Below are positions 3,953 to 61,211 of a stretch of 64,000 bases of DNA, piece after piece. Made by a program: the position numbers and the translations under genes. How positions within the stretch are numbered: position 1 is the stretch's first letter; the number at the start of each line of letters is the position of its first letter. Source of the stretch: Arenicellales bacterium (GTDB lineage Bacteria; Pseudomonadota; Gammaproteobacteria; Arenicellales; JAJDZL01); contig OZ243952.1 in assembly GCA_965214615.1 (NCBI GenBank), positions 2,445,734 through 2,509,733 on the forward strand. The letters run 5' to 3'. Below the pieces are notes generated by a model. The model was not told where the DNA came from. It saw only the letters and a list, made by a program, of their open reading frames with translations, and made no database searches.

Positions 3953-3987
3953 GAATTTGTAGCCTGCCGTAATGTGTACCGATCTGC

Positions 3988-5070
3988 CTAGTCTTCCGTC
4001 TTGCCCTGAATTCCTCGTAGCAGGGCGCGCTTGGTCACGACGCCGACGAATTCGTCATTATTGACAACGATGATCGGGTGTTCGGTTTCGATGGACATGT
4101 CGACAAGGTTGTCCAGACTGTCCTGCGGACTGGCTTGCGGCCAGCCGTCGTTCTTCAGTTCGCCGTGTTTGTCTTCATATTCGGAAATCGGCTGCATGAC
4201 TTTGTGCGCTGTGACGAGCTGAAGCTTTGAGATTCCTGCTACAAAGTCGGCAACGTAGTCATCCACCGGCTCGGTTACGATCTCCTCGGGAGTGCCGACC
4301 TGAACCAGTGCGCCATCTTTCATGATCGCAATGCGGTCGCCGATACGGATTGCCTCGTCAAGGTCGTGGGTGATGAACAGGGTCGTCTTGCCCATTTCCT
4401 CGGCGAGCATGAGAAACTGGTCTTGCAATTGACGGCGGATCAGCGGATCAAGCGCGGAAAACGGCTCGTCCATTAAAAGAATTTTCGGATCGGCGGCAAT
4501 TGCGCGCGCCAGTCCGACCCGCTGCTGCATCCCGCCGGACAGCTCATCCGGATATCGATCTTCCCATCCGTCAAGGTCGACAGTCCTGATCGCCTCGTCG
4601 GCCGTCTCGTAGCGCTGATCACGGTCTATGCCGCGCACTTCCAAGGCAAAAGCCACATTGTCGCGAACTGTTCGATGCGGCATGAGCGCCATGTTCTGAA
4701 ACACCATGCCGATTTTTGTGGATCTGAGTTCCCTGAGTTCAGTAGAGCCGAGTTGATTGACGTCCTGACCTTCTATAAGCACTTCGCCGGACGTGGGGTC
4801 AATCAGGCGATTGACGTGTCGAATCAATGTGGACTTGCCCGAACCGGACAGTCCCATGATGCAGAACACCTCGCCTTCGCTGACTGAAAAGCTCGCATCC
4901 TGAACACCCACCACGCAGTGGAACCTTTCGAGAATTTCAGTTTTCGACAGCCCTTCGGCCTGGATCGCCTTCATCGCGTCGTCAGCGCGGGTGCCAAAGA
5001 CTTTCCACAGATTGCGGCATTCGATTACAGGTCTTGCATCGCTGGAAGTCGTTGGAGGATCAATTGCCAT
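3988..5070 (-). CDS. proV: Glycine betaine/proline ABC transporter ATP-binding protein with C-terminal CBS pair
   Basis: Walker A GLSGSGKST, signature LSGGMQQRVGLARA, Walker B ILLMDEPFSALD. The C-terminal ~110 aa are CBS-like (..HPIIVVNNDEFVGVVTKRALL..). Confidence 0.92.
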   Translation of the reverse strand: MAIDPPTTSSDARPVIECRNLWKVFGTRADDAMKAIQAEGLSKTEILERFHCVVGVQDASFSVSEGEVFCIMGLSGSGKSTLIRHVNRLIDPTSGEVLIEGQDVNQLGSTELRELRSTKIGMVFQNMALMPHRTVRDNVAFALEVRGIDRDQRYETADEAIRTVDLDGWEDRYPDELSGGMQQRVGLARAIAADPKILLMDEPFSALDPLIRRQLQDQFLMLAEEMGKTTLFITHDLDEAIRIGDRIAIMKDGALVQVGTPEEIVTEPVDDYVADFVAGISKLQLVTAHKVMQPISEYEDKHGELKNDGWPQASPQDSLDNLVDMSIETEHPIIVVNNDEFVGVVTKRALLRGIQGKTED

Positions 5071-7044: not shown

Positions 7045-8196
7045 TTACCAACGGCCGCCAATCGTCAGCATGATGCCGCTTTCAGGTCGTTCGCCCTCAT
7101 TTTCGGCATAGTCTGCCACGATCTCCAGCGACAACTCATCATTCCTCCGGCGCACCGGGATGAATTGCCAGCCTAGCTGATACTCGCGTGATGATTCACC
7201 GAGCACATAGCTGAAATTGGGCTTGGCGATAACCGGACGACCGTTCATTGCGTATCCGTATGCCGCGGTAAAGCGCCATTGACTCTCAATTGCGTCATCG
7301 GTTTCGCCAGTCGGCACCCCGTTATCGAGTAACGCTTCAACGCCAACAGTTGCGCCATTATCCAATTCGTAGCCGATCGTCGATGAGAATCCGCGTTGCG
7401 TTGAAGGCTTCGAATCGTAGACAAGTTGCGCCGAGTAGCTCCAGGTTTCAAAATCTTCGTCTTCGTGCGTTATGAGACTGCGGCCCTCGACTGCGAACTC
7501 AAGACCATCACCGGGCATCGACCATGCAAGCCCGCCTCCGAATTCAATTCCGAATCCAGTTTCGGCATCGCCGCCGTCATAGCGGCCGCCCAGTTCAAAT
7601 GTCGGATTGAGCGTCACACCGCTATCGATTTGCAATCTCCACCCGCCTTCTATTCCCGCACGCAGTCGAGTTACCTCGGCTTCCTCGGCAGCAATGCCTT
7701 GCGCACTGTCACTGGCGGTGCGATTCCAGAATGCATCAGAAGCGAAATCAAGACTGAAACCGTTGCCTTTTTCTGCTTCAATCAATTTGCCGCGGACACC
7801 TGCGGCCACCATGGACCAGTCCATATCGGTGGTTAGCGCATCGTCGTCTTTGGCCCCGATAGACAAATCCCCCTCGCCGTAGCCGACAGCACCCCATATT
7901 GTGATTCGCTCGGATATTGCTTCCGAGGCCCACGGCACCAGGGCTGTAATGCTTGATGACACTGTTCCGGCAGTACCGTTGTCATATTCGATGTCCCCAT
8001 CGCCTTCGGAATGGGAGAGAATCACGCCAATGCGCGAATCTTCGGACGACCAATCTGCGCCGATCATTCCGGTAATGACTTCACCGCTCAGTGAGACGGT
8101 CCCTTCCTTGCTATCAAATCCAGATTTAACTCCCCTCGCCCACATCGACGTATATTCGCCATCGCCGTGCTCCTCGGTTAAAGAGAATGAAGAACT
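7045..8196 (-). other. Autotransporter-type translocator (beta-barrel) domain of the giant protein, approximate bounds
   Basis: Last ~380 aa: ..GEYTSMWARGVKSGFDSK..ITGMIGADW..RIGVILSHSEG..ITIWGAVGYGEG..FSLDFASDAFWNR..GFGIEFGGGLAW..WSYSAQLVYDS..WRFTAAYGYAM..YQLGWQF..SGIMLTIGGRW. These are amphipathic strands rich in Gly and aromatics, with a terminal Trp. A helix-like linker (EWMARFGRTITEQVIDGIGSRI) lies upstream at ~8.4 kb. Confidence 0.65.
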
Positions 8197-11100
8197 GGTC
8201 AGTACGTCTATCCAGCTCATAGACTTTGATTCCCTGCCGGTATCGGCACAGTGGCCGTTCAATACTCTTTCGTGCCTATGCCGCGCTTGCGACCACGTGC
8301 CATTGCCGCACGTATCGCTCGCATGACCGAGAATCCCGCCATGATCTGCAGCGCTGTCTGAAAAAGCAATCCCGGCAAACGTCCCTTCAATTCCCTGTGT
8401 GCCGTCATGCTGAATTCGCGAGCCAATGCCGTCGATCACCTGCTCGGTAATTGTACGGCCGAACCGAGCCATCCACTCTTTGGTCGCTGTCTGAACATCT
8501 AAAATCGTTCCTGTCGCAGAACCACGATCCAGTCTTGTGTTTCTTGGGCTTGACAACTCCACACTGAACATTTCGGGAGGTTCACTGACAGCATCGTTCA
8601 TTGCGAAAACTTGAACCATTTTCCTGTCCTCGCCTTCACTGAACTCAATCGTCCCCGATACTTCTTCATAGTCGAGATTCGGCGTAGCTGTTTGCGGAAG
8701 GGTGTTCCACGTGATCGCCACATTCCCTGTAGAGGGTGCAGACAGCTCAACTGTAAATTCAAGAAATTCACCTTCGTCCGCTTCTGCATCCAAGATAGTC
8801 ATGGCGGGACCAGAGTCTTGCACAGATACTTGTACCGAATCTGCAGTCACCGAGGCATAGGAACCTGTACCTGCTACCGAGTGAGTTATCACAGCCTCTG
8901 CATCAGCGATATCATCATCCAGCTGCGGGACAACAGTCACCGTCTGCTCGCGGCTCCAGTTCTGCTCGGTAAAGGTTAAGGTGGCGGCGGGACCCGGTGT
9001 GCCGCCCGATGCATTGACCGCAACTGCAGACGGCAAATTGCTGGTCGCCGTAATCGTCACACTGGTGCCTGGGTCAGGCGCCTTTGTCAGCACCAAGGTA
9101 TATTCGCCGGCTGCCCCGCCTTCGACAAGCGCCATCGAAGTCTTAGAGACATCTACGCCAGCCACCGGACGGGCGCCGTCTATCAAAGCCAATACTCCTA
9201 ATTGCACGCCTAATGAATTGGTCGAATCGTCAAGAATCAGGACGATGGATTCATCGATCTCCGCTACATCGTCTGCCAGTGCCTTGACCTTGAATTTGAT
9301 CCTGCCATTGACCGGGGTTAGCGAATGATTTACGGCCAGTTCAGCATCATTGCCACTTAGCAATTTGAAGTCTGAACCCAGCGAAGCACTAGACGCCTGA
9401 CCAATCCTGAGTTTTAAACTGCTGTAGGCCGACTCGATACCGGACACCGTGTAAGCTAAAGTCTCGTCTTCGTAGATCGTGTCAAGTTCGGGCGTAATGG
9501 TAAAGTCATCATCAATAATATTTCCCGTAGCAACTGTTGCACCCTGCACCGATGACAAATTCGCATTCGACGGCTGAATTAAAGTTACGACGATTGTCTC
9601 TAGTCCTTCGTCAATCGTATCACCCTTTATTGGAATCGCGATGGTTGCGGTCTTCGTCCCTGGCGCGATTGACACCATCAATTGTGCCGGCTCCACATAG
9701 TCCGACGCCGCGCTTGCTGTACCGCTGAGCTGGTAATTCACAACGACCTCATTGACACTGACTGCATCCACCGAAACTTCAAATGTCATCTCCGTCGTTG
9801 TCTGAGGATCATCGCCTTCGCGCACTGACACTACATCGCCAACAGAAACCGACGGCGCCTCATCGTTGTCTGTGATCGTCCCGGTACCGTCAATAGTTGA
9901 CGCTGCGCCGAGGAACCCGGCATTGGCAGGGTTCGATAGCCGAAGGACTATTGTTTCATCTGATTCGTCGTTGCTGTCGGGTTTGACGGTGACTGTAATT
10001 TTCTTGGATTCTTCTCCGGGAGCGAATGTCAATTGACCTGAAGCGAACTGCTCGTAATCGGTACCCGCCGATGCAGTTCCCGTGCCGGTGTCGGCGAAAT
10101 CAACAGTGACCGTGCTGCTGCTTTGCGGAGCAAGTGTCACTGTAAATTCCAATGACTTGGCATCTTCGCCGTCACCCTCTTCCACTTGCGGATTGTCAAT
10201 AGAGATCATTGGCGACCCGTCATCGTCATCCACAGTGATATCCACGTTGTCAGCGCTCACATCTTCGTAGTCGGTATTCGCAGCACTGACTGTATGGGTG
10301 ATCGTAGTCACTCGCTTGTCCTCGGCGTTATCGACACTGTCTTGCACCGCCGTCACGATCACGGTCTGCGGTAAAAGCCAGTTGCTGGCAGTGAACTGAA
10401 CACTGTTTTTGTCCACTGTCGCTACATTCGTATTGCTGCTCGCGATATTCACCGCTACGGTGCCCGTGGGCTGGCTTTCGAGCTCAATGGTATATTGAGC
10501 CTGATTTTCCTTAGTGTTTTGAGTCCCGGCGTCATCGGCTTCGGACAGCTTAATGGCCGACTTTGAAATACTCACGCCTCGAACATCGTCGTCTTCGATC
10601 GTCAATGTCTTCGGAGACGGGCTATTGAGGCCGTTTCCGCCGCTGGCTACGGCCGAGACGGTGATTGTCTTGTCATCCGAGTCCACCTTGTTGTCAATCG
10701 AGGCAATCGTTACCGTGCCGGTGCTCGCTCGGCTGCCGGCTGCTATCGTCAGCGTGCTGCCTGCCAATTGGAAGTCGCTGCTCGTTGCCGGTGAATTCGC
10801 AGCTGCGCTCACCGTCAGGCTCACTTGCTGGCTCGATGCTCCGCTCATTGTCGCAGTCACGGTCGATACGCCGCTGGTCAAGCCTCCGTTTTCCTTGACT
10901 TTCAGGGGTGTCAATACCAGTGAGACAACCGGCGCACCATCGTCGTCGTTGACAGTCACCGCTATGCTTGGAACTGAAGTAATTGTCGAATAGTCAGTAC
11001 CGGTCGCACTCATGGTGTGCGTGATCTGCGTTGTTCGAGAATTGCCGGTATTGTCAATTTGATCTGCGACTGCCTGTACTGTTATCGTTCGCGCCCGATT

Positions 11101-14100
11101 CCAATTGCTTGCAGTGAACGTGACGCTGTTTTCGTCAATCGTTGCCACATTCGTATCAACAACCTTCAAGTTAATTGTGACAGAGCCGCCGGACGGTTCG
11201 CTGTCGAGTACGATTGTGTACGTGCTCTGATGTTCCAAGGCGCCGGAAGTTCCGGCGTTATCGGCCTCATCGATAACTATCGGATCTGCGGCAACGCTGA
11301 CTCCGCGCTCGTCGTCATCTTCAATGGTCAGTGTCAGACCGGCAGGGTTCAACACGCCGCCGCCGTTCGCCGCGCCAGACACCGCCACAGTCGCGTTCGG
11401 CGCATCCACGTCATTGTCGGCAGCGGTGATTGTCACTGTACCCGTACTGGTCGTAGTGCCGGCTGCAAATGTCAAAGTGGTTCCGCTTTGCGTCACAGGT
11501 GCGCCATCGGGAACAGAAACGACCACCTCCACTGCCGCACTGGCCTTGCCGGACAATGTTGCAGTGACCGTACTGGCGTTGTCACTTCCGCTCTCGTCGA
11601 TTGAATTTGCACTCAAATTCAAGGTGACCGTCGGAACGCCCTCGTCATCCGCGATGGTCAGCATCCGATCCGACGGGTCCGACACACCGCCTCCGGTCGC
11701 GGTGCCGGATACCGTCACAGACTTGTTCGGCGCATCCACATCATTGTCAACCGCCGCAATCGTCACCGCACCCGTACTGGCCGTGAAGCCAGCTGCAATC
11801 GTCAATGTTTTGTTCGTGCTCAACGTGAAATCCGACGACGAAGTATCGGTCCCGGCTGCCGCTGCCACCTCGACTGTAACAGCCTCGTGCGACTCGCCCG
11901 AAAGGGTCGCAGTCACCGTGCTCGAATTACTGCTGCCGGATTCGTTTATGGTTGTTGGATCGAGGATCAGCGCAACAGTCGGCGTTGTCTCATCATCTGT
12001 AATTGTCAGTGTCTGATCCGACGGATCGGATACCCCGCCTCCGGTCGCCGTAGCGGACACCGTCACAGACTTGTCCGGCGCATCCACATCATTGTCAACC
12101 GCTGCAATCGTCACCACACCCGTACTGGCCGTGGTGTCGGCTGCAATCGTCAATGTCTTGTTCGCGCTCAACGTGAAATCCGACGACGATGTATTGGTCC
12201 CTGCTGCCGCTGCCACAGTCACTGTCACTGCAGCGCTCGATTTACCCGAAAGGGTCGCGGTCACCGTACTTGTGCCACTGGTCGCGCCGCCGTTCTCGTC
12301 AATTGACGCGGGCGTCAGTTTCAGCGTTACCGCGGGCGTACCGTCGTCATCGTTGACAGTGACATCGACATTGCCGACCGTCTCAGCCGAATAGTCGGTG
12401 CCGCCGGCGCTGACCGTGTGCGTGATTTGCGTAGTCCTTTTGTTATTCGCGTTGTCGATGTCATCGTCAATCGCCGTAACCGTCACTGTCCGCTCCGATT
12501 CCCAGTTGCTCGCAGTGAATGCCAGGCTTGCCGGACTGACCGTGGCGATCGTGTTGGCGTCGCTTGACAGATTAATCGTCACCGTGCCGCCTGTCGGCTC
12601 GCTGTCGAGCACCACCGTATAAGTGTCCTGATGCTCGGAAGAACCCCCGTCGGCCTCTTCGACCGTGACTGCGCTCTTTGACACCGTCACACCGCGCTGA
12701 TCATCGTCGGTGATCGTCAGCGTCTCACTGTCCGGTGCAGCAATGCCGTTGCCGCCGGTCGCCGTTGCCGATACCGTAAAGGTCTTGTTTGCGGCATCGA
12801 TGTCGTTGTCCACCGCAGCAATCGTCACCGTCCCTGTACTGTCTCTGGAACCCGCCGCTATCGTCAGCGTCGTGCCGCTTTGCGTAATGTCGGCAGCCGC
12901 CGCCGAGCCAACCGGCGCAGCTGAAACCGTCAAAGTCACCGCCTCGCTCGACTCCCCGCCCATGGTCGCCGTTACCGTGGTCGTGCCAGTGCTTGATCCG
13001 CCATCCTCTTCAATCGACGCTGGTGTGAGCACCAGGCTGACCGTCGGCGTGCCGTCGTCATCGTTGACAGTGACATCGACGCTGTCGACTGTCTCATCCG
13101 AATAGTCGGTGCCACTGGCGCTAACCATGTGCGTGATTTGCGTAGTCCTTTCGTTGTCGGTGTTGTCGACGTCGTCGTCAACCGCCGTCACCGTCACTGT
13201 CTGCTCATCATCCCAGTTGCTCGCAGTGAATGCCAGGCTTGCCGGACTGACCGTGGCGATCGTGTTGGCGTCGCTTGACAGATTAATCGTCACCGTGCCG
13301 CCTGTCGGCTCGCTGTCGAGCACCACCGTATAGGTGTCCTGATGCTCTGAAGCGTCCCCGTCGGCCTCTTCGACCGTGACTGCGCTCTTTGACACCGTCA
13401 CACCGCGCTCATCATCGTCGGTAATCGTCAGCGTCTGATTGGCCGGGTCGGCAATGTCGTTGCCTCCGGTCGCCGTAGCCGACACCGTGAAGGTCTTGTT
13501 TGCGGCATCGATATCGTTGTCCACCGCCGCAATCGTCACCGTCCCTGTACTGGCTCTGTAACCCGCTGCTATCGTCAACGTCGTACCGCTTTGCGTAAGG
13601 TCAGAAGCCGACGCAGAGCCATCCGGCGCAGTTGAAACCGTCAAAGTCACCGCCTCGCTCGACTCCCCGCCCATGGTCGCCGTTACCGTGGTCGTGCCAG
13701 TGCTTGATCCGCCATCCTCTTCAATCGACGCTGGTGTGAGCACCAGCCTGACCACCGGCGTGCCGTCGTCATCGTTGACAGTGACATCGACGCTATCGAC
13801 TGTCTCAGACGAATAGTCGGTGCCACCGGCGCTAACTGTGTGCGTGATTTGCGTAGTCCTTTCGTTGTCGGTGTTGTCGACGTTGTCGTCAACCGCCGTC
13901 ACCGTCACTGTCTGCTCATCATCCCAGTTGCTCGCAGTGAATGCCAGGCTTGCCGGACTGACCGTGGCGATCGTGTTGGCGCCGCTTGCCGGATTGATGG
14001 TTACCGTGCCGCCTGTCGGCTCGCTGTCGAGCACCACCGTATAGGTGTCCTGATGCTCGGACGCGCCCCCGTCGGCCTCTTCGACCGTGACTGCGCTCTT

Positions 14101-20100: not shown

Positions 20101-23100
20101 CGGAGAGACCGTAGCGACTGTTTTGTCATTACTAGCGATGTTGATCCTAACGGACCCGCCGGTCGGCTCACTTGTCAGCACTACGTTGTATATTTTCTCG
20201 TTTTCCTTGCTGTCAGTCTGTGAAGCGTCCTCTTCTTTCAGGTCGCCAGCCGCGTCAATCGAAATATCCACGCCGCGCTCGTCGTCGTCGGTGATTGTCA
20301 ATATTTTCGACGAAGGCGCACTGACGCCGTTGCCGCCGCTTGCCGCGGCGGAAACTGTGACTTGCTTGTTCGCAGCATCAATATCATTGTCGATCGACGT
20401 AATCTGTACTGTTTCTGTGCTATCGGTTCCGCCTGCTGCAATGGTCAATATTTTGTTGTCAGTCAATGAGAAATCGCTGACCGATGCTCCAGTTCCAGTT
20501 TCAGGTACCGCCGCAACTGTAAGTTCCACGTCTTCGCTGGACTTGCCGCTCAGCGTCGCCGTGACCGTGGTTGTTTGGCCGTTCTCAGTTATAGTCGCAG
20601 CCGATAAATCCAGCGTCAATGTCGGCTTGCTTTCGTCGTCGTTAATCGTCACGGACGTCCCGGTAACGGTTACATCGGCCAAAGTTCCTTCAACACTGAA
20701 TTGCTCGCTCAGTTCGTGAAGATCATTGTCCTCAATCGTCAAGACAGTTTGACCGCTTGCGCTCGGCAAGCCCACTGGGATTGTGATATCCATGTCGACA
20801 ATTGTGTAATCCGAACCCTCTGTCGCACTATCTGCCGCCTTGCCGAACGAAACCGCGACCGTCTTGGGAACCGCAAATCGGGTATCGCCGGTGATCTTGG
20901 CAGTCACTCTGATGGTCGGCGTGACCCCGGGGCCTTCTGTCACGGCAGTCTGATTCCCGCCAGCGGATAAATTGGTATCCACCTCGATGGTCATCGCTGT
21001 CGGCGGATCGTCATCGTCTTCAACCGTGACTTCTACACGAGGCACTACCAGACCTTCATAGTCCGTGCCGGCACTCAGGGTATGGGTAATGTTGGCGATT
21101 CGCTTGTTATCGATGTTGTCAATATTGTCTGCTTTTGAGGTCACCGTGACGGTGCGCGCATTATTCCAGTTGCTGTTTGGAGCAATTGTGATACTGGTCG
21201 GACTGACTGTCGCTACTGACTCGTCACTGCTTTTCAGATTGACCGTCACCGTGCCCGTCGGTCGGCTGGTCAGATTGATTGTGTAGGTGCCCTCGTTCTC
21301 GGTTGTCGAGCTTGTCAAGCCGTCATCTTCTTCATCCAAATCAAATTCTGTTTTGGACACCATTACGCCGCGCACATCGTCGTTGACGATTTTCAGTTCC
21401 GCACTCGCCGGGGCTGCCACGCCGTTACCGCCGCTTGCCGTTGCCGAGACCGTAATTTTCTTGTCCGCGTCATGAATCTCATTGTCGACAGCGGTAATAG
21501 TGACCGTCCCTGTGCTATTCAGCGAATGCGCTGCAATCGTCAGAGTCTTGTTCGCGGTTATATTGAAAGCACCGGAATCCCCGTCATGCTCAGGTGACGC
21601 TGAAATTGCCAGCGTCACCGCCTGAGATGAAGTTCCGTTCATGCTCGCCGTGACGGTTGAACTTCCGCTGGTCGCACCTCCGTTTTCGTCGATGCTGGTC
21701 TCAGATAGTGTCAGCGATACAACCGGAGTGCCTTCATCATCATTCACAGTCACGGCAATATCGCTCGCCGGTACCGCCGAATAGTCGGTGCCTGTAGCGT
21801 TGACCGTATGGGTAATGGTGGTTTCTCTCTTATCTCCGTCGTTGTCGTCAGGGTCATCAACTGCGGTGATTGTTACAGTTTGCGGATCATCCCAGTCATC
21901 CGCATCGAACGTAAGGCTCGTCGCAGAGACTGTGGCAATGGTTGTATCGTCACTCGCCACATTGATTGTGACTTCTCCGGTCGGTTCGCTGAGCAGTACT
22001 ACCTCGTAGGTTTTTTGGTGTTCCTTGTCGGTGTTATCCTGAGTATCCGGGATATCCGCTTCATTCACAGTGACGCTTGATTCGGAGATGCGAATACCGC
22101 GCTCATCGTCATCTTCAATGGTCAAATCTACGTTTGCAGGATTGTCAACGTCATTGCCGCCCTCGGCGTTCGCAGAAACTGTGACGGTCTTGTTGTCCGT
22201 ATCGATATCGTTGTCTACCGTGGCAATTGTTACCGTTCCGGTACTGTCCGTCGTGCCTGCGGCAATGGTGAGCGTCACATTCTCACTGAGCGTGAAATCA
22301 TCATTGGATGCGCGTGTACCGGCCGCAGCAGCAACAGTCAGTGTCACATCCTCGCTGGACTTGCCGGTCAAATCGGCAGTTACGGTTACAGATTCGTCGG
22401 CTTCGGTGACATTGGATTTCGACAATTTCAATCGAACTGTCGGTTTCGTTTCATTGTCTTGAATCGTAATGGTTGTGCCGGCAACCGTGATCCCGTCCAG
22501 GCTGCCTTCAATACTGAACGTCTCGGAGTCCGGTTCGTCCAGGTCGTCGTCCACCACAGTCAAGGTGAAGTTTTCACTGGCACTTGCATCCCCTCTAGGG
22601 AGCTTGATGTTAAAATCTGCCGCGGTATAGTCTGCGGTCGCGGTCGCACTATCGCCATCGGCACCGAACGTAACCGCTACTGTCTTGTCATCGTCGAACC
22701 GAGTTTCGCCGTCAATGGCAACCGTCAGCCTTACGCTTGCGCTGCCGACATTTTCAGCCACTGTGTTCTGAATTCCGGATGAGTTCGTATTGGTGTCGAC
22801 CGTGATCGTCATCGCTGTCGGTTCGTCGTCGTCGTCTTCAACCGTGACTTTGATTTTTTCAGCAGTAACGCCGACATAGTCGTTGTCCTCTCCTTGTGCG
22901 CTCAGGGTGTGGGTAATGTTCGTTGTTCGCTTGTCTTCGTCGTTATCAATGTCGTCGTCCACCGCTGAGATGGTTACCGTCTGCGGCTCATCCCAGGTTG
23001 AAGTAGAAAATGTGAGAGTCTTTTCGTCCACTGTTGCTACAGATTCGCTTTCGCTTGCAACCGTAATTGATACACTCCCTATCGCCGGTTGACTGTTCAG

Positions 23101-26100
23101 CCGGACTGTGTAGCTTTTCTCATTGTCGGTGATGCCGTCATTTTCATCGGCATCGGTTTCTCTCAGTGGCACTTCGGATTCGGAGATAGTCACGCCGCGC
23201 TCGTCGTCATCTTCAACGGTGAGCGTCTTGTCGTCAGGACTCACCACATCAATGCCGCCGCTCGCCGCGGCCGATACCTTGAATGTCTTATCTAGCGCAT
23301 CGATTTGATTTGCCTGCGCGGTAATCGTCACCTCTTCCGTACTGGCTTTTGCGCCTGCAGCAATCGTCAATGTCGTGTTGCTGCTTAAAGCGATATCAGA
23401 TGCAGCCGCCGGCGATACATGCGTGGCACTTACTTCCAACGTTACGGCCTCACTGGCAGTGCCACTCATGCTAGCGGTCACAGTCGAAAGACCGGAGTCT
23501 GCACCGCCGTCTTCAGTAATTTTTTCGGGCGATAGAATTAGAGTGACTTCCGGGGTGTCCTCGTTGTCATCAATCGTGAAAGTGGCCGGAGATATCGTTA
23601 TTGCTGAAAGACCGTCAATCGTGCCGTTCACGCTGAGTGTTTCGTCACGCTCGTATATTTCGTCATCCTTAAGCGTGAGTTCGAATTCCCCTTCTATCGA
23701 ATCAGTGCCCGCAAGAAGTACGATGTCGAATTCCGCTACTGCGGCATAATCATCAGTTACGGTTGCAGGGTAGGTTTTCCCAGGCCCGACGTCGATTGTT
23801 ATGGCTTGATTTTCAGCAAATCGAGTTGCTCCGGAAATTGTCGCTGTGACTGTAACTTCAACTTCACCTGAATCTTCCACAGCCGAGGTCTGCGCACCTG
23901 CAGCCGCGGAAACATCTATAGCCAGATTGATGACGCTCGGAGCGGCGTCTTCGTCGTTGACTGTCACCTCGATGTTATCAATCGTAAGGTCTGCGTAATC
24001 GGTACCTGAACCGTCGATTGTGTGGGATATTTCTGTCGTTCGCTTGTCTTCGGGGTTGTCGATATTGTCGTCCACCGCGGAGACTGTGATCGTCCTCGAC
24101 TGATTCCAGTTCGATGGCGTGAACGTAATGCTGGTCGGGGTAACCGTCGCAACCGACGCAACCGACGTTTCTGAACTTTTTAGATTGACAGTTACATCAC
24201 CCGTCGGTTCGCTGTCGAGTACGATTGTGTATTCATTCTGGGTGCTTTCCACCGAGTTAGTATCAGGGTCGTCCGATTCCCATATCTCAATCTTGGATCC
24301 AGCGGACAGGGTTACACCACGAGTATCGTCATCTTCAATTATGAGTGTTACGGATTCTTCTGGGTCTTCAACATCGTGGCCGCCGCTCGCTGTTGCCGAA
24401 ACAGAAACTTTCTTGTTCTCTGCATCGATTTCATTGTTCACGGCAGTAATCGTAACTGTCTCTGTACTGGCCGTTGCACCCGCTGCTATCGTCAGTGTCT
24501 TTGCATCACTCAGTGTGAAATCAGAATTCACTGCCGGCGCAAGCGCGGCTGCTTTGACCGTAAGTTCAACCGTCTCGCTTGCTTCGCCGCTCAATGTGGC
24601 TTCCACGTTGGTTGATCCGCCGTTCTCACCGATACTTGCATCCGTCAAGCTCAGGGTAACTGTCGGTTTTGGCTCATCGTCGCCTATCGTTATCGTTGCA
24701 GGCGTAAAGGTCACGCCATCAAGCTTTCCCGTTACACTGATTGTCTCGTCCAATTCGTAAATATCGTCGTCGGACAACTTCAGAGTAAACGGTTCGGTAA
24801 AACTTTTTTCCCCTGCCGGTATTTTGAGATCGAAATCTGGCACGGAAGTGTAGTCTTCGCCCTCAGTCGAGGAGTCGCTTGGGATGTCGCCGACAGAAAT
24901 TACGACAGTCTTGTCGGTAGAAAACCGTGTCGGGCTAGTGATTTCGGCGGTGACATTGACCGATAAATCTCCATCGCCTTCATCAACTTCGTCCTGATCG
25001 CCTTGCGTGTCGGTATCGGTGTCTACCGTAATCGTGATTGCGTTCGGCGCAGGGTCATCATCGTTGATTGTGCCGGTTGCCTGGCTCGTTTCAATCGCAG
25101 GTGCCGGAAGCCCGTCTAATGCTCTCGGGGCGGCCAGCGTCACCAGAAAAGTTTCGTTTTCTTCGTCAAGAATGTCTTGCGAAGAGGCGACGGAAAAATT
25201 CTGGTCTGTCACCCCTTCACCAAACGTAAGAGTCGCACTATTTGCGGTGTAATCTTTATCTGCGATGGCGTGATTTGCACCTGTGTCGTCCTTAGTCTGT
25301 GCTCGAACTGAAATCCTATTGCCTGTTGCGCCTGTTCTTTTGACCTTGAAAGCAAGATTGGTCCCTTCTGTTGCCGTAGCAGCTTCGATCGAAAATTTTG
25401 GTTGCGTCTCATCATCCTTGATAGTGAATTGAAGTGGTTTATGACCGTCTGGGCCGTCTGCTGCTTTTAATCCATCGTTAAACGTACTTGTGCCGAAATT
25501 TAAATCAATTTTGAATGTTTCGTCGCGTTCCCACAAATCATCGTCTTCTGGGGAGATCGTTACTGTGCAGACATACTTTGCTGGGCTGCCTTCTTCTGCG
25601 CATTCAGACCCGTCAACTTTATCTGGTGCAAAAAAATCATCTGGTTTTCCTCCCTTTGCTGGATTGACAGGCGTATATTTCAGTGCAAAGCTCGGCTGTC
25701 CCTCGTCCAGATCAACCGTAAACGGCGCATTTTCGGAACTTGTAACCGGACCATTCGGCGGTCTCGCCAATTCAATTTCGAATGTAAGCTTCGCATCCGA
25801 ATCCTCGTCAATCTCGCTACTGCTAAGGTTCCGCAATTTCACCGGAGTTTTGTTGACATCAATCATGACGACTTCGAATCGGTTGCGGTCCCCTCTTTCG
25901 TAGTTGGAATCCAATTTTGATTCATCGATTTCGATTGCGAGTAGTTCGTAGTGGCGCTCGTCTATGCCATCACTTTTTATCTTTAGGGTGGCTGTTCCGG
26001 ATGTCTGTCCCGCACTTATGGTGATAGCAGCGGGCAGATCAAAGTCAGCCGAGTCTACTGTCGTCGATGGAAACCCAATTGGTTTCAGTGGAATCGTCAA

Positions 26101-27282
26101 GTCCTGGGCAGGTGCGGTACCTCTGAGTGTCGCGGTGATGGTTGTGCTTCCGCCTTCGGTTATTTTAGTTCGAGTCGAAGGAAATACACTGCCGGTGAGA
26201 GGAAAATATTGAATGGGAGCTATTCCATGAAGGTACACAATTGCGGCTTTATCGGTTGGCTTCCCATCGTCATCCTGAATCGTAAACGACCTCGTAGCTG
26301 TAGTAGATTCGAGACCGGAACCGCTCTCAACATTAAATAATATGGGTTTGTTCTTACCAACATGAGCACGGAACGTCAGTGCAAACTGTTCATCAGGCTC
26401 AGGAGTATCGTCGTCGATAATTCCCTTTAGGGACCCCGTTGCGGAACTTGTATTCGCCGGAAATGCAAGTCTTTCCGATTCATCAGTGAGTTCAAGCTCG
26501 TCCTTGTCGATATCGATCTTTGATGATGTACCACCGCGGCCAGATGCCACTGTAGCCGTCCTATGATCCGAATCATACAAAGTCCATCCAATCGTAAAAT
26601 CATGTGGGACAGTATTGTCCAAATCAAAGGTAACCTGCTTATTGTTGTTCCCTTTCGTTTCTGGAATTCCGATGGGGGATGAAGGGGTGATGGTTATAGT
26701 GCGTTGCTGCTTTTCATAAATCTCGAGATCTTTTATCTCGTGTCTTTCGTTGACAGTTATCTTCAACCCTAAATACTCGGTCGCTTCATAGGTACTGTCT
26801 CCACGTATCATAATTTCGATTGACTGAGAATCAGTGTCGTTCGCGGCAAAACTCAAAGTGCCACTTACAGGCATGTAATCATCACCCGACGTCGCCTGCG
26901 GTGAAGTCGTAGAATTTATTGTTTCGTACTTTATATCCAGAGGTTCGGAAAGTTCGGAAGGACTTCCTTTACGCTTGAATGTAAATTTCGCCGGATAGCC
27001 TTCGCCGAAACGAAAGCCGGAACTAGGTGTTTCTTGCGAGGCACCTTGATCAATAAGCCCGAGGCATCGAACCTCCAAAATGTCACCAAATAAATCCCCA
27101 AAACCAGGGCAAGGGACACCATCATTGGCTTTTGCCGGCACAAATATTCCAATCAAGACCAGAACTAGGCCTAGTACGGCCTGAGCTTTCCAGTACTCGA
27201 ATAATGAAAGCGGAAAATTGGGGTGGAGGACGTAGCTTGGCGGTTGAACTGGCAGCGAGAACCCTGAATTCTTGCCACTCAT
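7045..27282 (-). CDS. Giant (6,745 aa) acidic repeat protein: extended signal sequence, dozens of Calx-beta-like modules, C-terminal autotransporter-type beta-barrel (adhesin candidate)
   Basis: One uninterrupted 20,238-nt ORF. Modules of ~100-125 aa each end in DDD/DDE. Many carry Calx-beta-like signatures (..DSATEGTDY..F.L.P..D..DE.DE...V.G.L; ..AEADEGEFLEFTVELSAPS...DYEEVSGTIEFSEGEDRKMVQV..). The C-terminus has an alternating hydrophobic pattern and ends GIMLTIGGRW. Confidence 0.9.
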   Translation of the reverse strand: MSGKNSGFSLPVQPPSYVLHPNFPLSLFEYWKAQAVLGLVLVLIGIFVPAKANDGVPCPGFGDLFGDILEVRCLGLIDQGASQETPSSGFRFGEGYPAKFTFKRKGSPSELSEPLDIKYETINSTTSPQATSGDDYMPVSGTLSFAANDTDSQSIEIMIRGDSTYEATEYLGLKITVNERHEIKDLEIYEKQQRTITITPSSPIGIPETKGNNNKQVTFDLDNTVPHDFTIGWTLYDSDHRTATVASGRGGTSSKIDIDKDELELTDESERLAFPANTSSATGSLKGIIDDDTPEPDEQFALTFRAHVGKNKPILFNVESGSGLESTTATRSFTIQDDDGKPTDKAAIVYLHGIAPIQYFPLTGSVFPSTRTKITEGGSTTITATLRGTAPAQDLTIPLKPIGFPSTTVDSADFDLPAAITISAGQTSGTATLKIKSDGIDERHYELLAIEIDESKLDSNYERGDRNRFEVVMIDVNKTPVKLRNLSSSEIDEDSDAKLTFEIELARPPNGPVTSSENAPFTVDLDEGQPSFALKYTPVNPAKGGKPDDFFAPDKVDGSECAEEGSPAKYVCTVTISPEDDDLWERDETFKIDLNFGTSTFNDGLKAADGPDGHKPLQFTIKDDETQPKFSIEAATATEGTNLAFKVKRTGATGNRISVRAQTKDDTGANHAIADKDYTANSATLTFGEGVTDQNFSVASSQDILDEENETFLVTLAAPRALDGLPAPAIETSQATGTINDDDPAPNAITITVDTDTDTQGDQDEVDEGDGDLSVNVTAEITSPTRFSTDKTVVISVGDIPSDSSTEGEDYTSVPDFDLKIPAGEKSFTEPFTLKLSDDDIYELDETISVTGKLDGVTFTPATITIGDDEPKPTVTLSLTDASIGENGGSTNVEATLSGEASETVELTVKAAALAPAVNSDFTLSDAKTLTIAAGATASTETVTITAVNNEIDAENKKVSVSATASGGHDVEDPEESVTLIIEDDDTRGVTLSAGSKIEIWESDDPDTNSVESTQNEYTIVLDSEPTGDVTVNLKSSETSVASVATVTPTSITFTPSNWNQSRTITVSAVDDNIDNPEDKRTTEISHTIDGSGTDYADLTIDNIEVTVNDEDAAPSVINLAIDVSAAAGAQTSAVEDSGEVEVTVTATISGATRFAENQAITIDVGPGKTYPATVTDDYAAVAEFDIVLLAGTDSIEGEFELTLKDDEIYERDETLSVNGTIDGLSAITISPATFTIDDNEDTPEVTLILSPEKITEDGGADSGLSTVTASMSGTASEAVTLEVSATHVSPAAASDIALSSNTTLTIAAGAKASTEEVTITAQANQIDALDKTFKVSAAASGGIDVVSPDDKTLTVEDDDERGVTISESEVPLRETDADENDGITDNEKSYTVRLNSQPAIGSVSITVASESESVATVDEKTLTFSTSTWDEPQTVTISAVDDDIDNDEDKRTTNITHTLSAQGEDNDYVGVTAEKIKVTVEDDDDEPTAMTITVDTNTNSSGIQNTVAENVGSASVRLTVAIDGETRFDDDKTVAVTFGADGDSATATADYTAADFNIKLPRGDASASENFTLTVVDDDLDEPDSETFSIEGSLDGITVAGTTITIQDNETKPTVRLKLSKSNVTEADESVTVTADLTGKSSEDVTLTVAAAAGTRASNDDFTLSENVTLTIAAGTTDSTGTVTIATVDNDIDTDNKTVTVSANAEGGNDVDNPANVDLTIEDDDERGIRISESSVTVNEADIPDTQDNTDKEHQKTYEVVLLSEPTGEVTINVASDDTTIATVSATSLTFDADDWDDPQTVTITAVDDPDDNDGDKRETTITHTVNATGTDYSAVPASDIAVTVNDDEGTPVVSLTLSETSIDENGGATSGSSTVTASMNGTSSQAVTLAISASPEHDGDSGAFNITANKTLTIAAHSLNSTGTVTITAVDNEIHDADKKITVSATASGGNGVAAPASAELKIVNDDVRGVMVSKTEFDLDEEDDGLTSSTTENEGTYTINLTSRPTGTVTVNLKSSDESVATVSPTSITIAPNSNWNNARTVTVTSKADNIDNIDNKRIANITHTLSAGTDYEGLVVPRVEVTVEDDDDPPTAMTIEVDTNLSAGGNQTAVTEGPGVTPTIRVTAKITGDTRFAVPKTVAVSFGKAADSATEGSDYTIVDMDITIPVGLPSASGQTVLTIEDNDLHELSEQFSVEGTLADVTVTGTSVTINDDESKPTLTLDLSAATITENGQTTTVTATLSGKSSEDVELTVAAVPETGTGASVSDFSLTDNKILTIAAGGTDSTETVQITSIDNDIDAANKQVTVSAAASGGNGVSAPSSKILTITDDDERGVDISIDAAGDLKEEDASQTDSKENEKIYNVVLTSEPTGGSVRINIASNDKTVATVSPDSLFFSNSTWNVERDVTITSVNDDIDNTDEERTTTITHEVIAVSTDYENVKADSIAVTVDDDDVPPTAMKLTVDVSSVGEAAGQTAIAVTATITSRTRFATETDVSVDVGKSSDSATEGTDYANVDRFIIKIPAGAASKTESFNLTPTNDTTDEIDETISIEGTLSRVSVTPAAVTITDNDATPTVTLSLSTNSIAENGGSSRVMANLSGTSSEDVTLTVAATPVSPAVVGDFTLSETTTLTIAAGGISSSGQVSVTAVNNNVDAANKQLTISATAQGGHGVANPGSLPLTITDDDTRGITVTPTTVTMEEKDNAGTKNTAEHQKTYKIRLNSEPSGGTVTINTQSADSEVATVLPSSLTFDTSDWSTEKSVVVTAVDDIIDNAGNSRTTTITNSVSAADTDYKDESADPVNVTVNDDDVEPTAVKITVSANSGADASQISINEGATATTVDVTATITSSTRFATSETVAVKVGNSGDTAAETTDYANVADFEIVIPAGAASATESFTLTPTDDAIDEVDEVLSVKGTLAGVTVTDASVKILDNEDTPTVTLSLTNGSISENGGSSQLAASLSGVSSEALTLSVTVRASSGASKNDLTLSGTMLNIPANSTNSNSITISAVDNDIDTDDKEFTVSASATGGHGVGSPESLTLTVQDEDTRGITISSTTLVLDEVDNPSTTIDEHERIYVIVLDSEPTGAVKVSLTNEDETAAVVTPVMHTFTSGNWNQPQAFTVTSKNDNIDNTDDRKTTKISHAVSADGTDYAGETIDDVSVTVNDDDATPRRIKLEVDTNVTSSGKQRRIREPAGQTEVEVTAKVVGSSRFADAQRIDVSVGKSGDTASEGTDYNTISGVVITIPAGAESASKRFNLTPINDTVDETNERITVDGTGLDTPSLNIVEDTITIIDDEGTPTVSLVLGASAIGENAGSTTVTASLDRASGANISLVVAVTPVDPAVAGDFTLSSNTTLTIAAGSLASTETVSITAVDNDIDTPNKELTVSATATTASLDMRLHVEDPVAEKLEITDDDVSGVSISATKIEIDEADDGDTAATENKKIYEIELDSEPIGTVTIDIGSDDTTVATVLPARITFDKDDWDTAQEITVTAVDDDIDNTDDERTAIISHTVRSTEPDYVKVTAASVDIEVADVDETPTEMTVTVDTSIRDDGVQGTVGEGAGSPTMRATVAIVGDIRFATSQTVAITFGKEGDGATNPADYSVSNFNITIPAEMGSASTTFAFTVSDDDLDEPNEQLSVEGQLAGVEITGTSITIEDNDATPTATLSLSPTTINESGQGTTSTVTAALSSKSSQAITIEVAAAAGEGAVSSDFTLSANTTLTIAAGQTASTGTVTVAAVNNEVDAADKEVTVSGTTTGGGVSDPNSQTLTIADEDARGVVVSAASAGVSVAEVDDALTSSAKENEATYTVMLTSEPSGGAVTIEVESEATTIATVSPVSLNFTDTTWNVAQTVTVTGIDDNIDNTGGSRATTITHTVDADDTDYEHETAGSVAVTVNDDEVLPTVSMSLADASISESGGSTTITASLTGKSSEDITLSLSVSPSAGAAAGDLTLSGNSLTIAAGTIQSDPVTIESVNNDIDTANKEFTISATASGGNDIDDPDDQTLTITDDDERGIIVTPVALTVDEVDNPDTAAVSENEKSYEVKLNSQPTGAVTVNINNEHNSVATVSAASLSFGPSDWKTAKSVKVTAVDDNIDNTGGERTASIAHSVAATNTDYNGETALGVTVTVTDDDAAPDALTLSVDTDSATDGEQTELAENAGATTVTVTAEIDGDTRFADDKTVSITIGNSTDDSATEGTDYSATDVTLTLPAGKASVSGTFTLTPTVDSVDEPDETVTVEGSLSSIDTVAAATITITDNNDKPTLSLAITDSDDSISEDGGSTSITASLDGVSSQDVTLTVSTTAVSPAVAADFTQTGTTLTIAAGSTSSTETVTIAAVDNDIDAANKTFTVSATATGGNDIADPANQTLTIIDDDERGVTVSKSAVTVEEADGGASEHQDTYTVVLDSEPTGGTVTINPASGANTIATVSPASLAFTASNWDDEQTVTVTAVDDNVDNTDNERTTQITHTVSAGGTDYSSETVDSVDVTVNDDDGTPVVRLVLTPASIEEDGGSSTGTTTVTATMGGESSEAVTLTVSTAPDGSASASDLTQSGTTLTIAAGYRASTGTVTIAAVDNDIDAANKTFTVSATATGGNDIADPANQTLTITDDDERGVTVSKSAVTVEEADGDASEHQDTYTVVLDSEPTGGTVTINLSSDANTIATVSPASLAFTASNWDDEQTVTVTAVDDDVDNTDNERTTQITHMVSASGTDYSDETVDSVDVTVNDDDGTPTVSLVLTPASIEEDGGSSTGTTTVTATMGGESSEAVTLTVSAAPVGSAAAADITQSGTTLTIAAGSRDSTGTVTIAAVDNDIDAANKTFTVSATATGGNGIAAPDSETLTITDDDQRGVTVSKSAVTVEEADGGSSEHQDTYTVVLDSEPTGGTVTINLSSDANTIATVSPASLAFTASNWESERTVTVTAIDDDIDNANNKRTTQITHTVSAGGTDYSAETVGNVDVTVNDDDGTPAVTLKLTPASIDENGGATSGTSTVTATLSGKSSAAVTVTVAAAAGTNTSSSDFTLSANKTLTIAADTTASTGVVTIAAVDNDVDAPDKSVTVSATATGGGVSDPSDQTLTITDDETTPTVALILDPTTINESGSSNSSTVTATLSGESHEAVTVEVAAAAGTDTSSSDFTLSTNKTLTIAAGFTASTGAVTIAAVDNDVDAPNKSVTVSGTATGGGVSDPSDRMLTIADDEGVPTVTLNLSANSIDESGSDNASTVTATLSGKASAAVEVVVSVPDGAPVTQSGTTLTFAAGTTTSTGTVTITAADNDVDAPNATVAVSGAANGGGVLNPAGLTLTIEDDDERGVSVAADPIVIDEADNAGTSGALEHQSTYTIVLDSEPSGGSVTINLKVVDTNVATIDENSVTFTASNWNRARTITVQAVADQIDNTGNSRTTQITHTMSATGTDYSTITSVPSIAVTVNDDDGAPVVSLVLTPLKVKENGGLTSGVSTVTATMSGASSQQVSLTVSAAANSPATSSDFQLAGSTLTIAAGSRASTGTVTIASIDNKVDSDDKTITVSAVASGGNGLNSPSPKTLTIEDDDVRGVSISKSAIKLSEADDAGTQNTKENQAQYTIELESQPTGTVAVNIASSNTNVATVDKNSVQFTASNWLLPQTVIVTAVQDSVDNAEDKRVTTITHTVSAANTDYEDVSADNVDITVDDDDGSPMISIDNPQVEEGDGEDAKSLEFTVTLAPQSSSTVTVDFADTGTGTASAGTDYEQFASGQLTFAPGEESKKITVTVKPDSNDESDETIVLRLSNPANAGFLGAASTIDGTGTITDNDEAPSVSVGDVVSVREGDDPQTTTEMTFEVSVDAVSVNEVVVNYQLSGTASAASDYVEPAQLMVSIAPGTKTATIAIPIKGDTIDEGLETIVVTLIQPSNANLSSVQGATVATGNIIDDDFTITPELDTIYEDETLAYTVSGIESAYSSLKLRIGQASSASLGSDFKLLSGNDAELAVNHSLTPVNGRIKFKVKALADDVAEIDESIVLILDDSTNSLGVQLGVLALIDGARPVAGVDVSKTSMALVEGGAAGEYTLVLTKAPDPGTSVTITATSNLPSAVAVNASGGTPGPAATLTFTEQNWSREQTVTVVPQLDDDIADAEAVITHSVAGTGSYASVTADSVQVSVQDSGPAMTILDAEADEGEFLEFTVELSAPSTGNVAITWNTLPQTATPNLDYEEVSGTIEFSEGEDRKMVQVFAMNDAVSEPPEMFSVELSSPRNTRLDRGSATGTILDVQTATKEWMARFGRTITEQVIDGIGSRIQHDGTQGIEGTFAGIAFSDSAADHGGILGHASDTCGNGTWSQARHRHERVLNGHCADTGRESKSMSWIDVLTSSSFSLTEEHGDGEYTSMWARGVKSGFDSKEGTVSLSGEVITGMIGADWSSEDSRIGVILSHSEGDGDIEYDNGTAGTVSSSITALVPWASEAISERITIWGAVGYGEGDLSIGAKDDDALTTDMDWSMVAAGVRGKLIEAEKGNGFSLDFASDAFWNRTASDSAQGIAAEEAEVTRLRAGIEGGWRLQIDSGVTLNPTFELGGRYDGGDAETGFGIEFGGGLAWSMPGDGLEFAVEGRSLITHEDEDFETWSYSAQLVYDSKPSTQRGFSSTIGYELDNGATVGVEALLDNGVPTGETDDAIESQWRFTAAYGYAMNGRPVIAKPNFSYVLGESSREYQLGWQFIPVRRRNDELSLEIVADYAENEGERPESGIMLTIGGRW
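12330..14270 (-). repeat. Near-identical 711-bp (237-aa, two-module) tandem repeat, about 2.7 copies, inside the giant gene
   Basis: Antisense shadow ORFs recur at 12398, 13109 and 13820 (also 12972/13683) with a 711-nt period. 12501-12621 is identical to 13212-13332 (121 nt). The protein units ..ERGVTVSKSAVTVEEADG..EHQDTYTVVLDSEPTGGTVTIN.. differ at only a few residues. Confidence 0.85.
27127..27282 (-). other. Extended N-terminal signal-peptide-like region of the giant protein
   Basis: MSGKNSGFSLPVQPPSYVLHPNFPLSLFEYWKAQ is a ~34-aa n-region. It is followed by the hydrophobic core AVLGLVLVLIGIFV and PAKA|NDG (AxA-type site). Cleavage is not verified. Confidence 0.5.
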
Positions 27283-27314
27283 TCCACCCCCCCCCTCATA
27301 TCAAGGTGGGAATG
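27279..27314 (-). promoter_or_regulatory. Translation-initiation region of the giant gene: SD-like G tract, start-codon-occluding hairpin, 6-codon uORF
   Basis: mRNA: CAUUCCCACC-uugauaugaGGGGGG-GGGUGGAAUG. CAUUCC pairs with GGAAUG (includes the AUG) and ACC pairs with GGU, leaving one bulged C. The uORF is AUG AGG GGG GGG GUG GAA UGA (27299..27279); its UGA overlaps the main AUG (AAUGA). Function is inferred only. Confidence 0.35.
27287..27295 (-). repeat. Homopolymeric G9 tract (C9 on + strand) 4 nt upstream of the giant gene's ATG
   Basis: + strand reads attcca-ccccccccc-tcatatc. On the mRNA strand this is ..gatatgaGGGGGGGGGtggaATGagtggc. Confidence 0.95.
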
Positions 27315-32366: not shown

Positions 32367-32411
32367 ACGCGCATTGTAGCTCATGAGCTACACGGAGACA
32401 AGGCAACTTAC

Positions 32412-61173: not shown

Positions 61174-61211
61174 AGACGCACCTGAGTCTGAAGACCGGGA
61201 CATGAACAAGC

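Follow-up and report, generated by a model that had tools for sequence, protein, structure and literature searches.

The stretch of DNA analysed here, a 64-kb segment of contig OZ243952.1 from an Arenicellales bacterium ('the window' in the following, at its full length), carries on its minus strand a single uninterrupted open reading frame (ORF) of 20,238 nt (7045–27282), i.e. 31.6 % of the window, the only stop codon of which is the terminal one (7045–7047). The ORF call agrees with the first-pass annotation of this DNA, in which one continuous reading frame of this length had been described from the letters alone; what that annotation had observed was borne out in all details open to checking. 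Its product is a 6,745-aa precursor of 696 kDa with a pI of 4.05. Our data favour, with moderate confidence, a giant surface adhesin of a sponge-associated gammaproteobacterium with a monomeric, type Va-like build, which would be self-anchored, probably self-translocated and would form a stalk of ~0.2 µm.

Signal peptide and passenger

The first 52 residues (27127–27282; all features of the gene lie on the minus strand) have the form of a Sec-type signal peptide, with a 32-aa n-region, a hydrophobic core at aa 33–49 and an AKA↓ND motif, which is consistent with signal-peptidase cleavage after residue 52. This call was made by inspection and supports the earlier description of a 52-aa extended signal-like N-terminus. 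No match to the ESPR motif was found in the signal region, and it would be speculative to assume that the long n-region acts as proposed for the extended signal peptides of large autotransporters. Among complete relatives, most ORFs likewise open with a classic Sec signal.

The passenger comprises approximately 51 modules, i.e. around four irregular beta-sandwich modules at aa 90–618, within the distal, N-terminal part (aa 53–618; 25429–27126), followed by 47 modules of 108–134 aa in the repeat array (aa 619–6267; 8482–25428). Module borders come from iterated profile searches in which the protein was compared with itself, and classes from an all-against-all comparison. Three diverged classes, A (n=17), B (n=16) and C (n=9), are laid out as C-A-B triplets and A-B pairs, the overall order being E C A B (CAB/AB)n ... 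D D F B D. The youngest part of the array (aa 4270–4980; 12343–14475) holds three A-B pairs with up to 88–93 % protein identity and a period of 711 nt, which is seen three times at 12.2–13.9 kb. The number of modules falls within the range of roughly 50–60 acidic modules that had been estimated by eye, and the low pI is in keeping with their acidic character. Thr, Ser, Ala, Asp and Val are abundant in the precursor, which contains six cysteines.

The Calx-beta-like nature of these modules, with their DDD/DDE ends, had also been proposed beforehand and is upheld by profile and fold matches. Individually, only around seven modules pass the gathering score of Pfam Calx-beta (PF03160), while the summed score reaches up to 133.6 bits. 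Three to four modules near the C-terminal end of the array are canonical Calx-beta domains. Two of these, at aa 5687–5921 (9520–10224), exceed the Pfam threshold; the membrane-proximal Calx-beta domain (aa 6150–6267; 8482–8835) directly precedes the linker to the barrel, a position which is conserved in the family. A further Calx-beta match lies in the distal part (aa 124–198). Modules of classes A and C stay below the threshold, with matches to Calx-beta (E 8e-6 to 2e-3) or to the LapA domain, and those of class B have no Pfam sequence match, though they are modelled as the same kind of sandwich. In the AlphaFold2 (AF2) model of a C-A-B triplet (aa 4154–4506; alignment of 34 sequences), three tandem beta-sandwiches are predicted with a pLDDT of 94.2, and the best fold matches of this model in the PDB are Ig-like arrays, the NCX1/CALX CBD12 tandem (16–20 % identity, E ~1e-9), integrin leg domains and cadherin ectodomains. 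As judged from these models, the passenger may fairly be likened in fold to 'Calx-beta-type beads on a string', most of the beads being diverged. The precursor has 62 occurrences of the DD[DE] pattern; together with DNDID-type loops, the acidic DDD/DDE ends would, going by known Calx-beta and cadherin structures, be the marks expected of Ca2+-stiffened junctions.

Giant acidic beta-sandwich repeat adhesins are typically substrates of type I secretion systems (T1SS) (PMC12153261), and weak matches to the LapA domain (PF20579) in some modules would also fit an adhesin of the RTX/LapA/SiiE class whose C-terminal signal is cryptic and whose transporter is encoded elsewhere. This alternative is close to refuted. 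The whole protein contains no GGxGxD motif, as had been reported for RTX nonapeptides at first sight, it starts with a Sec-type signal, and its C-terminal 380 aa model as a membrane barrel. Moreover, no ABC-C39, MFP or TolC genes were found near the giant gene, and none of T1SS, TpsB, usher or type II secretion system genes among the ORFs scanned across the 64-kb window, which extends the earlier statement that T1SS, TpsB and usher genes are missing from the vicinity. The sole ABC genes in the window are of the importer type (BPD_transp_1 and ABC_tran, 2993–5070).

The C-terminal helix and barrel

Behind the passenger follow a linker alpha-helix (aa 6271–6291; 8410–8472) with the family motif AW[IM]ARFGRTvaeQv, a segment containing a short beta-hairpin and a variable loop (aa 6292–6364; 8191–8409), and a beta-barrel domain (aa 6365–6745; 7048–8190) with amphipathic strands, an invariant RxDGGDAETGxG and a C-terminal ...GGRW. 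The helix-like linker KEWMARFGRTITEQVIDGIGSRI and the amphipathic strands leading up to the terminal ...GIMLTIGGRW, both picked out in the first-pass annotation, are present in the sequence as well as in the AF2 model; the family consensus ends in ...ARW/ARF. The model was built from the last 476 aa with 39 relatives as alignment (pLDDT 82.4, pTM 0.78). It places the helix (KEWMARFGRT...) at model residues 2–22 with a pLDDT of ~95, the hairpin at residues 28–41, the loop, with low confidence, at residues 44–84, and 18–19 strands connected by turns of 2–8 residues from residue 96 to the C-terminal Trp (W6745), i.e. over ~380 residues. A confident helix and beta-barrel are thus predicted as anticipated, but with 18–19 strands instead of the 12 that had been expected.

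Several lines of evidence bear on the number of strands. All 19 modelled strands have an alternating-hydrophobicity (amphipathic beta-) moment above background. Mean-field direct coupling analysis (DCA) of 402 pooled barrels (Meff 268) gave hairpin covariation in each adjacent strand pair, with a mean ladder score of 0.90 versus 0.40±0.14 for non-adjacent pairs; all strands, the last five included, are conserved and have this covariation. In one relative (P0101), positions 17–215 of the 255 positions of PF03797 align one-to-one with residues 50–247, and the surplus of ~125 residues, corresponding to ~6 strands, agrees with 18 strands. The end of the helix (residues 21/23) couples with residue 182 of the barrel wall (S=1.83, >99.99th percentile), which would fit a helix packed against the wall, and residue 33 of the hairpin couples with residues 118 and 125. 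From model and covariation, the barrel appears to be enlarged, with ~18 predicted strands rather than 12 and with the helix and the small hairpin as a putative plug.

Separately, DCA couplings at a constant offset of ~291 residues (155–447, 153–443 and 171–463) were observed, a pattern that is odd for antiparallel strands. An alignment of the N-terminal with the C-terminal half of the barrel by hhalign was not significant, i.e. an internal duplication was not detected in this comparison.

In Foldseek searches against the PDB, plugged 22-stranded TonB-dependent receptors ranked at the top (E 5e-7). With a TM-score of ~0.4, an rmsd of ~11 Å and no Plug or TonB_dep_Rec Pfam match at E≤10, a TonB-dependent receptor was rejected. 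Autotransporter barrels were matched as well, namely BrkA (3qq2; E 7.6e-6, TM-score 0.51–0.54 over ~250 columns), Hbp, EspP and EstA. Poor superposition on both the 22-stranded and the autotransporter barrels would be expected if the barrel is intermediate in size.

The matches to BrkA, Hbp, EspP and EstA, the layout of the protein with its C-terminal aromatic residue and the profile matches of some relatives (PF03797 in 6/40, best E 2.3e-10; TIGR01414 autotrans_barl in 12/40, best E 3.6e-7) would also fit a diverged classical type Va autotransporter with an ordinary 12-strand PF03797 barrel, the extra strands being either an error of the model or sheets extended on the extracellular or periplasmic side. 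We consider this improbable, as the 380 residues form near-continuous amphipathic strand with only short turns, ~125 residues reach beyond the Pfam model, the agreement with 12-stranded barrels stays at a TM-score of ~0.5 with an rmsd of ~8 Å, and the conservation and hairpin covariation extend to every strand up to the last. The only outer-membrane families matched by relatives are PF03797, TIGR01414 and the generic PF13505; the query barrel itself has no sequence match in the PDB. We take the barrel to represent a family of its own, at most remotely kin to classical autotransporter barrels, in the same architectural position, and the barrel appears to be a distinct variant on the type V theme rather than a classical member.

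A large family in sponge-associated bacteria

A database search with the barrel returned 113 relatives at 28–45 % identity, most of which have Calx-beta ahead of the barrel. In a HMMER scan of 1.84 billion cluster representatives (50 %-identity clusters), the barrel family comprised 10,680 representatives at E≤1e-3, of which 5,935 remained at E≤1e-30. In all of the best 150 listed, the barrel is found at or near the C-terminus, with lengths between 570 and 4,903 aa (median 1,637 aa); lengths of 1,000–4,900 aa are common in the family. Complete relatives share the order of signal peptide, passenger, helix and barrel, and the succession of Calx-beta, AWxARFGRT helix and barrel is conserved family-wide, Calx-beta nearly always adjoining the helix. 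Calx-beta occurs in 55/60 relatives, with fn3, cadherin, PKD and Big domains occurring as well, and in most relatives the passenger is assembled from the A/B/C/D module classes seen here. The architecture, which had at first been taken for exceptional, is the rule in this family, which has thousands of clusters and members of up to at least 4,903 aa. At 6,745 aa, the protein of the window is the longest member seen, and it is not different in kind. In the literature, we found no prior description linking Calx-beta or sponge symbionts to an autotransporter-like anchor, nor one of 18-stranded autotransporters.

At least 441 stretches with a gene for a relative were found in species-representative genomes, and the 80 best loci of these were kept. 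All of these 80 are in metagenome-assembled genomes (MAGs), often with several copies per genome, and they represent at least eight phylum-level lineages, including Alpha- and Gammaproteobacteria, Binatia, Nitrospirales, Acidobacteria/Vicinamibacteria, Gemmatimonadota, Spirochaetia and Thermodesulfobacteriota. The barrel-bearing ORFs at the genome loci extend over 1,000 to >3,800 aa from stop to stop, and at least six exceed the 10-kb flank. Two barrel matches within ~20 kb of each other were seen at 11 loci (L025, L044, L049, L064, L066, L074, L080, L091, L103, L109 and L118), and one protein (P0017) starts with the tail of another barrel; the genes of this family appear often to be arranged in tandem or in clusters.

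The names of the MAGs among the genome hits include Candidatus Poriferihabitaceae, a family of Arenicellales, and bin labels that appear to come from sponge MAG studies. Among metagenome hits, many are on LXNI01 contigs and one is on a JGIcombinedJ30088 contig, which are sponge metagenomes of Sarcotragus foetidus and Aplysina aerophoba, respectively (preprint). The MutS protein encoded in the window has its nearest relatives in MAG proteins of 73 % and 68 % identity, followed by MAGs of Arenicellales/Gammaproteobacteria at ~54–55 %.

Calx-beta has been described as one of the 'eukaryotic-like' domains enriched, across phyla, in the symbionts of sponges (PMC9531527, PMC11706023), and the aggregation factors of sponges contain 2–15 Calx-beta domains and require Ca2+ (PMC5400394). 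Since the aggregation factor is itself built of Calx-beta arrays, it is tempting to hypothesize that the giant protein mediates Ca2+-dependent adhesion to the sponge extracellular matrix and, by analogy, that it may bind or mimic the aggregation factor.

Route to the cell surface

In the route that we envisage for a self-translocated adhesin, Sec would export the precursor to the periplasm, where chaperones would hold the passenger unfolded, and the machinery for beta-barrel assembly (BAM), possibly together with the translocation and assembly module (TAM), would insert the barrel into the outer membrane. The passenger would then be threaded outward with its C-terminal end first, leaving the helix inside the barrel. 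Folding of the beta-sandwiches at the surface, one by one and beginning with the membrane-proximal Calx-beta domain, would drive secretion, as with the Ig-like domains of intimin. Finally, Ca2+ from the seawater would bind to the DDD/DxNDxD junctions and the chain would stiffen into a barrel-anchored stalk, the ~0.2 µm being an estimate from 51 domains of ~4 nm each. As external ions can enter the periplasm, a Ca2+ gradient would not be usable as a folding ratchet, unlike in T1SS adhesins. The periplasmic chaperones would also need to hold 6,200 residues unfolded, which is a real problem posed by this protein.

The first-pass annotation had proposed a self-exporting autotransporter. The order of Sec signal, sandwich passenger, helix and C-terminal barrel, which is common to complete relatives, is in favour of this proposal, while its implied canonical 12-stranded PF03797 barrel was not found. 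The accompanying suggestion that such a protein would challenge current ideas about BAM and TAM was overstated: secretion of type Ve (inverse) autotransporters is driven by the folding of Ig-like domains, as in intimin, i.e. arrays of such domains are already known to be exported via a small barrel (PMC6555100).

A number of results weigh against a self-translocating, type V-like adhesin. The last 476–546 aa of the query have no match to PF03797 at E≤10, as which the barrel had been expected to score, and none to any NCBIfam family, including TIGR01414, at E≤1. Taking the relatives together, PF03797 is matched in only 6/100, and in the independent sample of 60 it is matched in 0/60. A comparison of the family with four autotransporter barrels of E. 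coli K-12 (flu, yfaL, ypjA and ycgV) by hhalign was not significant (E 0.024, probability 2 %), and the family profile found nothing relevant, and no autotransporter, among PDB sequences. At the level of the fold, all matches have low TM-scores (0.3–0.54) and none superposes well. The barrel-closing strand pair was not recovered by DCA, which gave only a weak coupling between W476 and residue 104, and the position of the helix in the lumen, the closure of the barrel and the exact number of strands are predictions of the model. Surface exposure, Ca2+ binding and host binding are likewise predictions. The distribution of the family, so far almost only in marine-sponge bacteria, is read from MAG names and the identity of two metagenomes.

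The weak sequence link to autotransporter barrels is also in line with a different explanation, in which the barrel is merely a membrane anchor, the passenger crosses the outer membrane via a separate translocator encoded elsewhere or by a BAM/TAM route outside the barrel lumen, and the likeness to autotransporters is architectural only. An apparent strand number of more than 12 points in the same direction, as do the top fold matches, since TonB-dependent receptors are plugged barrels and not translocators; furthermore, the scan for partner genes covered 64 kb of a genome of ~3.2 Mb. Nevertheless, we regard this explanation as unlikely. No candidate partner gene is present within the window, the helix is strictly conserved beside the barrel and co-varies with a residue of its wall, and the occurrence in at least eight phylum-level lineages, often in multiple copies, fits a self-contained cassette better than a partner-dependent system.

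Coming back to the self-translocated adhesin, the separate observations can be joined into a wider scenario, which is possible, though we put it forward only tentatively and with clearly less confidence than the adhesin reading itself. The family would then represent an undescribed type V-like subclass with a monomeric, self-translocating barrel of ~18 strands, plugged by helix and hairpin and specialized for exporting chains of Calx-beta, cadherin or fn3 domains that run to thousands of residues. Horizontal spread would have carried it into at least eight phylum-level lineages, specifically within sponge microbiomes, where the Calx-beta arrays on display would engage the host's aggregation factor or mimic it, with the result that symbionts are kept instead of eaten.

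Integrity and composition of the gene

For a gene of this size and repetitiveness, an artefact of the assembly has to be considered. The intragenic DNA repeats are diverged, reaching no more than 95 % identity over 131 nt and 73–85 % over 300 nt, and a protein that is 100 % identical to the MutS of the window is encoded on a contig of 3.24 Mb, which together make collapse or chimerism of the assembly unlikely. Tandem Repeats Finder gave no matches in the giant gene, the repeat period of which exceeds its 500-nt limit. The gene could in principle be a pseudogene, or its repeats could have been wrongly expanded or joined, the true gene being shorter or interrupted; besides the highly repetitive sequence, a G9 homopolymer at the start of the gene would fit such an error, as long reads are error-prone at such tracts. 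Zero internal stops across 20 kb, the DNA-level divergence among the repeats, the length of the source contig and the fact that relatives of 2,000–4,900 aa are common all speak against it, and we consider it very improbable.

The GC content climbs along the gene from ~0.46–0.50 at its 5' end (24000–28000) to 0.57–0.60 at the youngest repeats (10000–16000), and the AT skew is strongly negative over the entire gene. Both probably reflect the composition of the repeats and recent duplication, not a foreign origin.

Start and upstream region

ATG1 is the sole start codon ahead of the hydrophobic core of the signal peptide and is preceded by the purine-rich, Shine-Dalgarno-like GAGGGGGGGGGTGGA, in which the G9 homopolymer (27287–27295 on the minus strand, read as C9 on the plus strand) lies 4 nt ahead of this codon. 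G9 is the only G/C homopolymer of at least 8 nt in the window. It may simply be the ribosome-binding site, it may allow phase variation of a surface adhesin through strand slippage, or its length may be an error of long reads at a homopolymer. An out-of-frame ATG at 27299–27297 enters the frame upon gain of one G in this tract.

The ~1.2 kb upstream of the gene (27283–28544) is AT-rich, with a GC content of ~0.46 versus ~0.55 elsewhere, and contains no ORF of at least 100 aa. Two sigma-70-like promoter matches were found there on the minus strand (27763–27734 and 28250–28223), a count not above shuffle expectation.

Genomic neighbourhood

The ORFs flanking the giant gene are housekeeping or toxin-antitoxin genes or are unmatched. 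Those with matches encode the ABC importer, SDR, TauD, PdxJ, FAA hydrolase, TauE, UDP-glucose dehydrogenase and XseA, as well as HipAB, PIN, Der, BamB, HisS, RlmN, MutS and an MttB-family protein. The gene order der-bamB-yfgM-like-hisS...rlmN fits Gammaproteobacteria. BamB is part of the conserved der-bamB cluster and is not read as functionally linked to the giant gene. Synteny with an Arenicellales MAG locus (L027) was considered and rejected, the ABC-importer genes being paralogous and differently arranged.

A HipA/HipB-like pair, a PIN gene, a Gp49-like (DUF891) gene and an ORF with the C-terminal part of a DNA methylase are scattered amid the housekeeping genes downstream (toxin-antitoxin, PIN, DUF891 and partial-methylase ORFs at 40416–42067, 42834–43271 and 32067–32384 on the minus strand and at 33659–34894 on the plus strand). 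The Rfam model PYLIS_3, for the pyrrolysine insertion sequence of mttB, has a match at 60024–60123 (minus strand; 58 bits versus a gathering score of 38), inside the uninterrupted MttB-family ORF at 59617–61242 (minus strand), which has no in-frame stop. This ORF is probably a non-pyrrolysine MttB homologue that was matched via conservation of the coding sequence.

Significance

Calx-beta is already reported to be enriched in sponge symbionts (PMC9531527, PMC11706023); the papers that we found are silent on the route by which these domains reach the cell surface. The locus described here, together with its thousands of relatives, suggests a common answer, i.e. a portable cassette of helix and barrel by which long beta-sandwich stalks are anchored and probably also exported. 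If ~18 strands are true, the known structural range of autotransporter-type secretion would be widened, and a natural system would be at hand for the crossing of the outer membrane by very long passengers that are not beta-helical. The link between Calx-beta and the aggregation factor offers a concrete, testable hypothesis for the recognition of symbionts by sponges. Of greater value than the single giant gene are the family behind it, which is large, unannotated and sponge-associated, and the barrel of this family, which appears to be enlarged.

Comparison with known systems

Type Va autotransporters, such as BrkA, EspP, Hbp and Ag43, share the layout of Sec signal, passenger, alpha-helical linker and C-terminal barrel with an aromatic end, and they likewise consist of one polypeptide without adjoining partner genes. 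The likeness extends to weak but specific profile matches via some relatives and to the presence of type Va barrels among the fold matches. In contrast, ~18–19 strands are predicted here versus 12, the query barrel matches no autotransporter model, and the passenger is a chain of beta-sandwiches where type Va has a beta-helix. No ESPR, autochaperone or pertactin-like junction was matched in the giant protein; instead, Calx-beta adjoins the helix.

Inverse (type Ve) autotransporters, i.e. intimin, invasin and their long Big-repeat relatives, also have a string of Ig-like beta-sandwiches attached to a monomeric barrel, with sequential domain folding as the likely driving force (PMC6555100). Their barrel is N-terminal, whereas it is C-terminal here and belongs to a different family; the domains are of the Big type there and of the Calx-beta type here, and no LysM or periplasmic domain was found in the giant protein.

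The giant T1SS adhesins LapA, SiiE, MpIBP and BapP are similar in having very long acidic beta-sandwich arrays, probably stiffened by Ca2+, and a presumed role in adhesion to surfaces or hosts (PMC12153261). They differ from the protein described here in that the latter combines a Sec signal with a C-terminal barrel and has neither RTX repeats nor neighbouring T1SS genes.

The sponge aggregation factors (MAFp4 and AqAFA-E) and the CBD12 tandem of NCX1/CALX consist, as does the passenger, of tandem Calx-beta domains with acidic Ca2+-binding loops. These proteins are eukaryotic and carry Wreath/VWA domains or occur in the context of an exchanger, and the likeness to the giant adhesin candidate is one of fold and domain family only.

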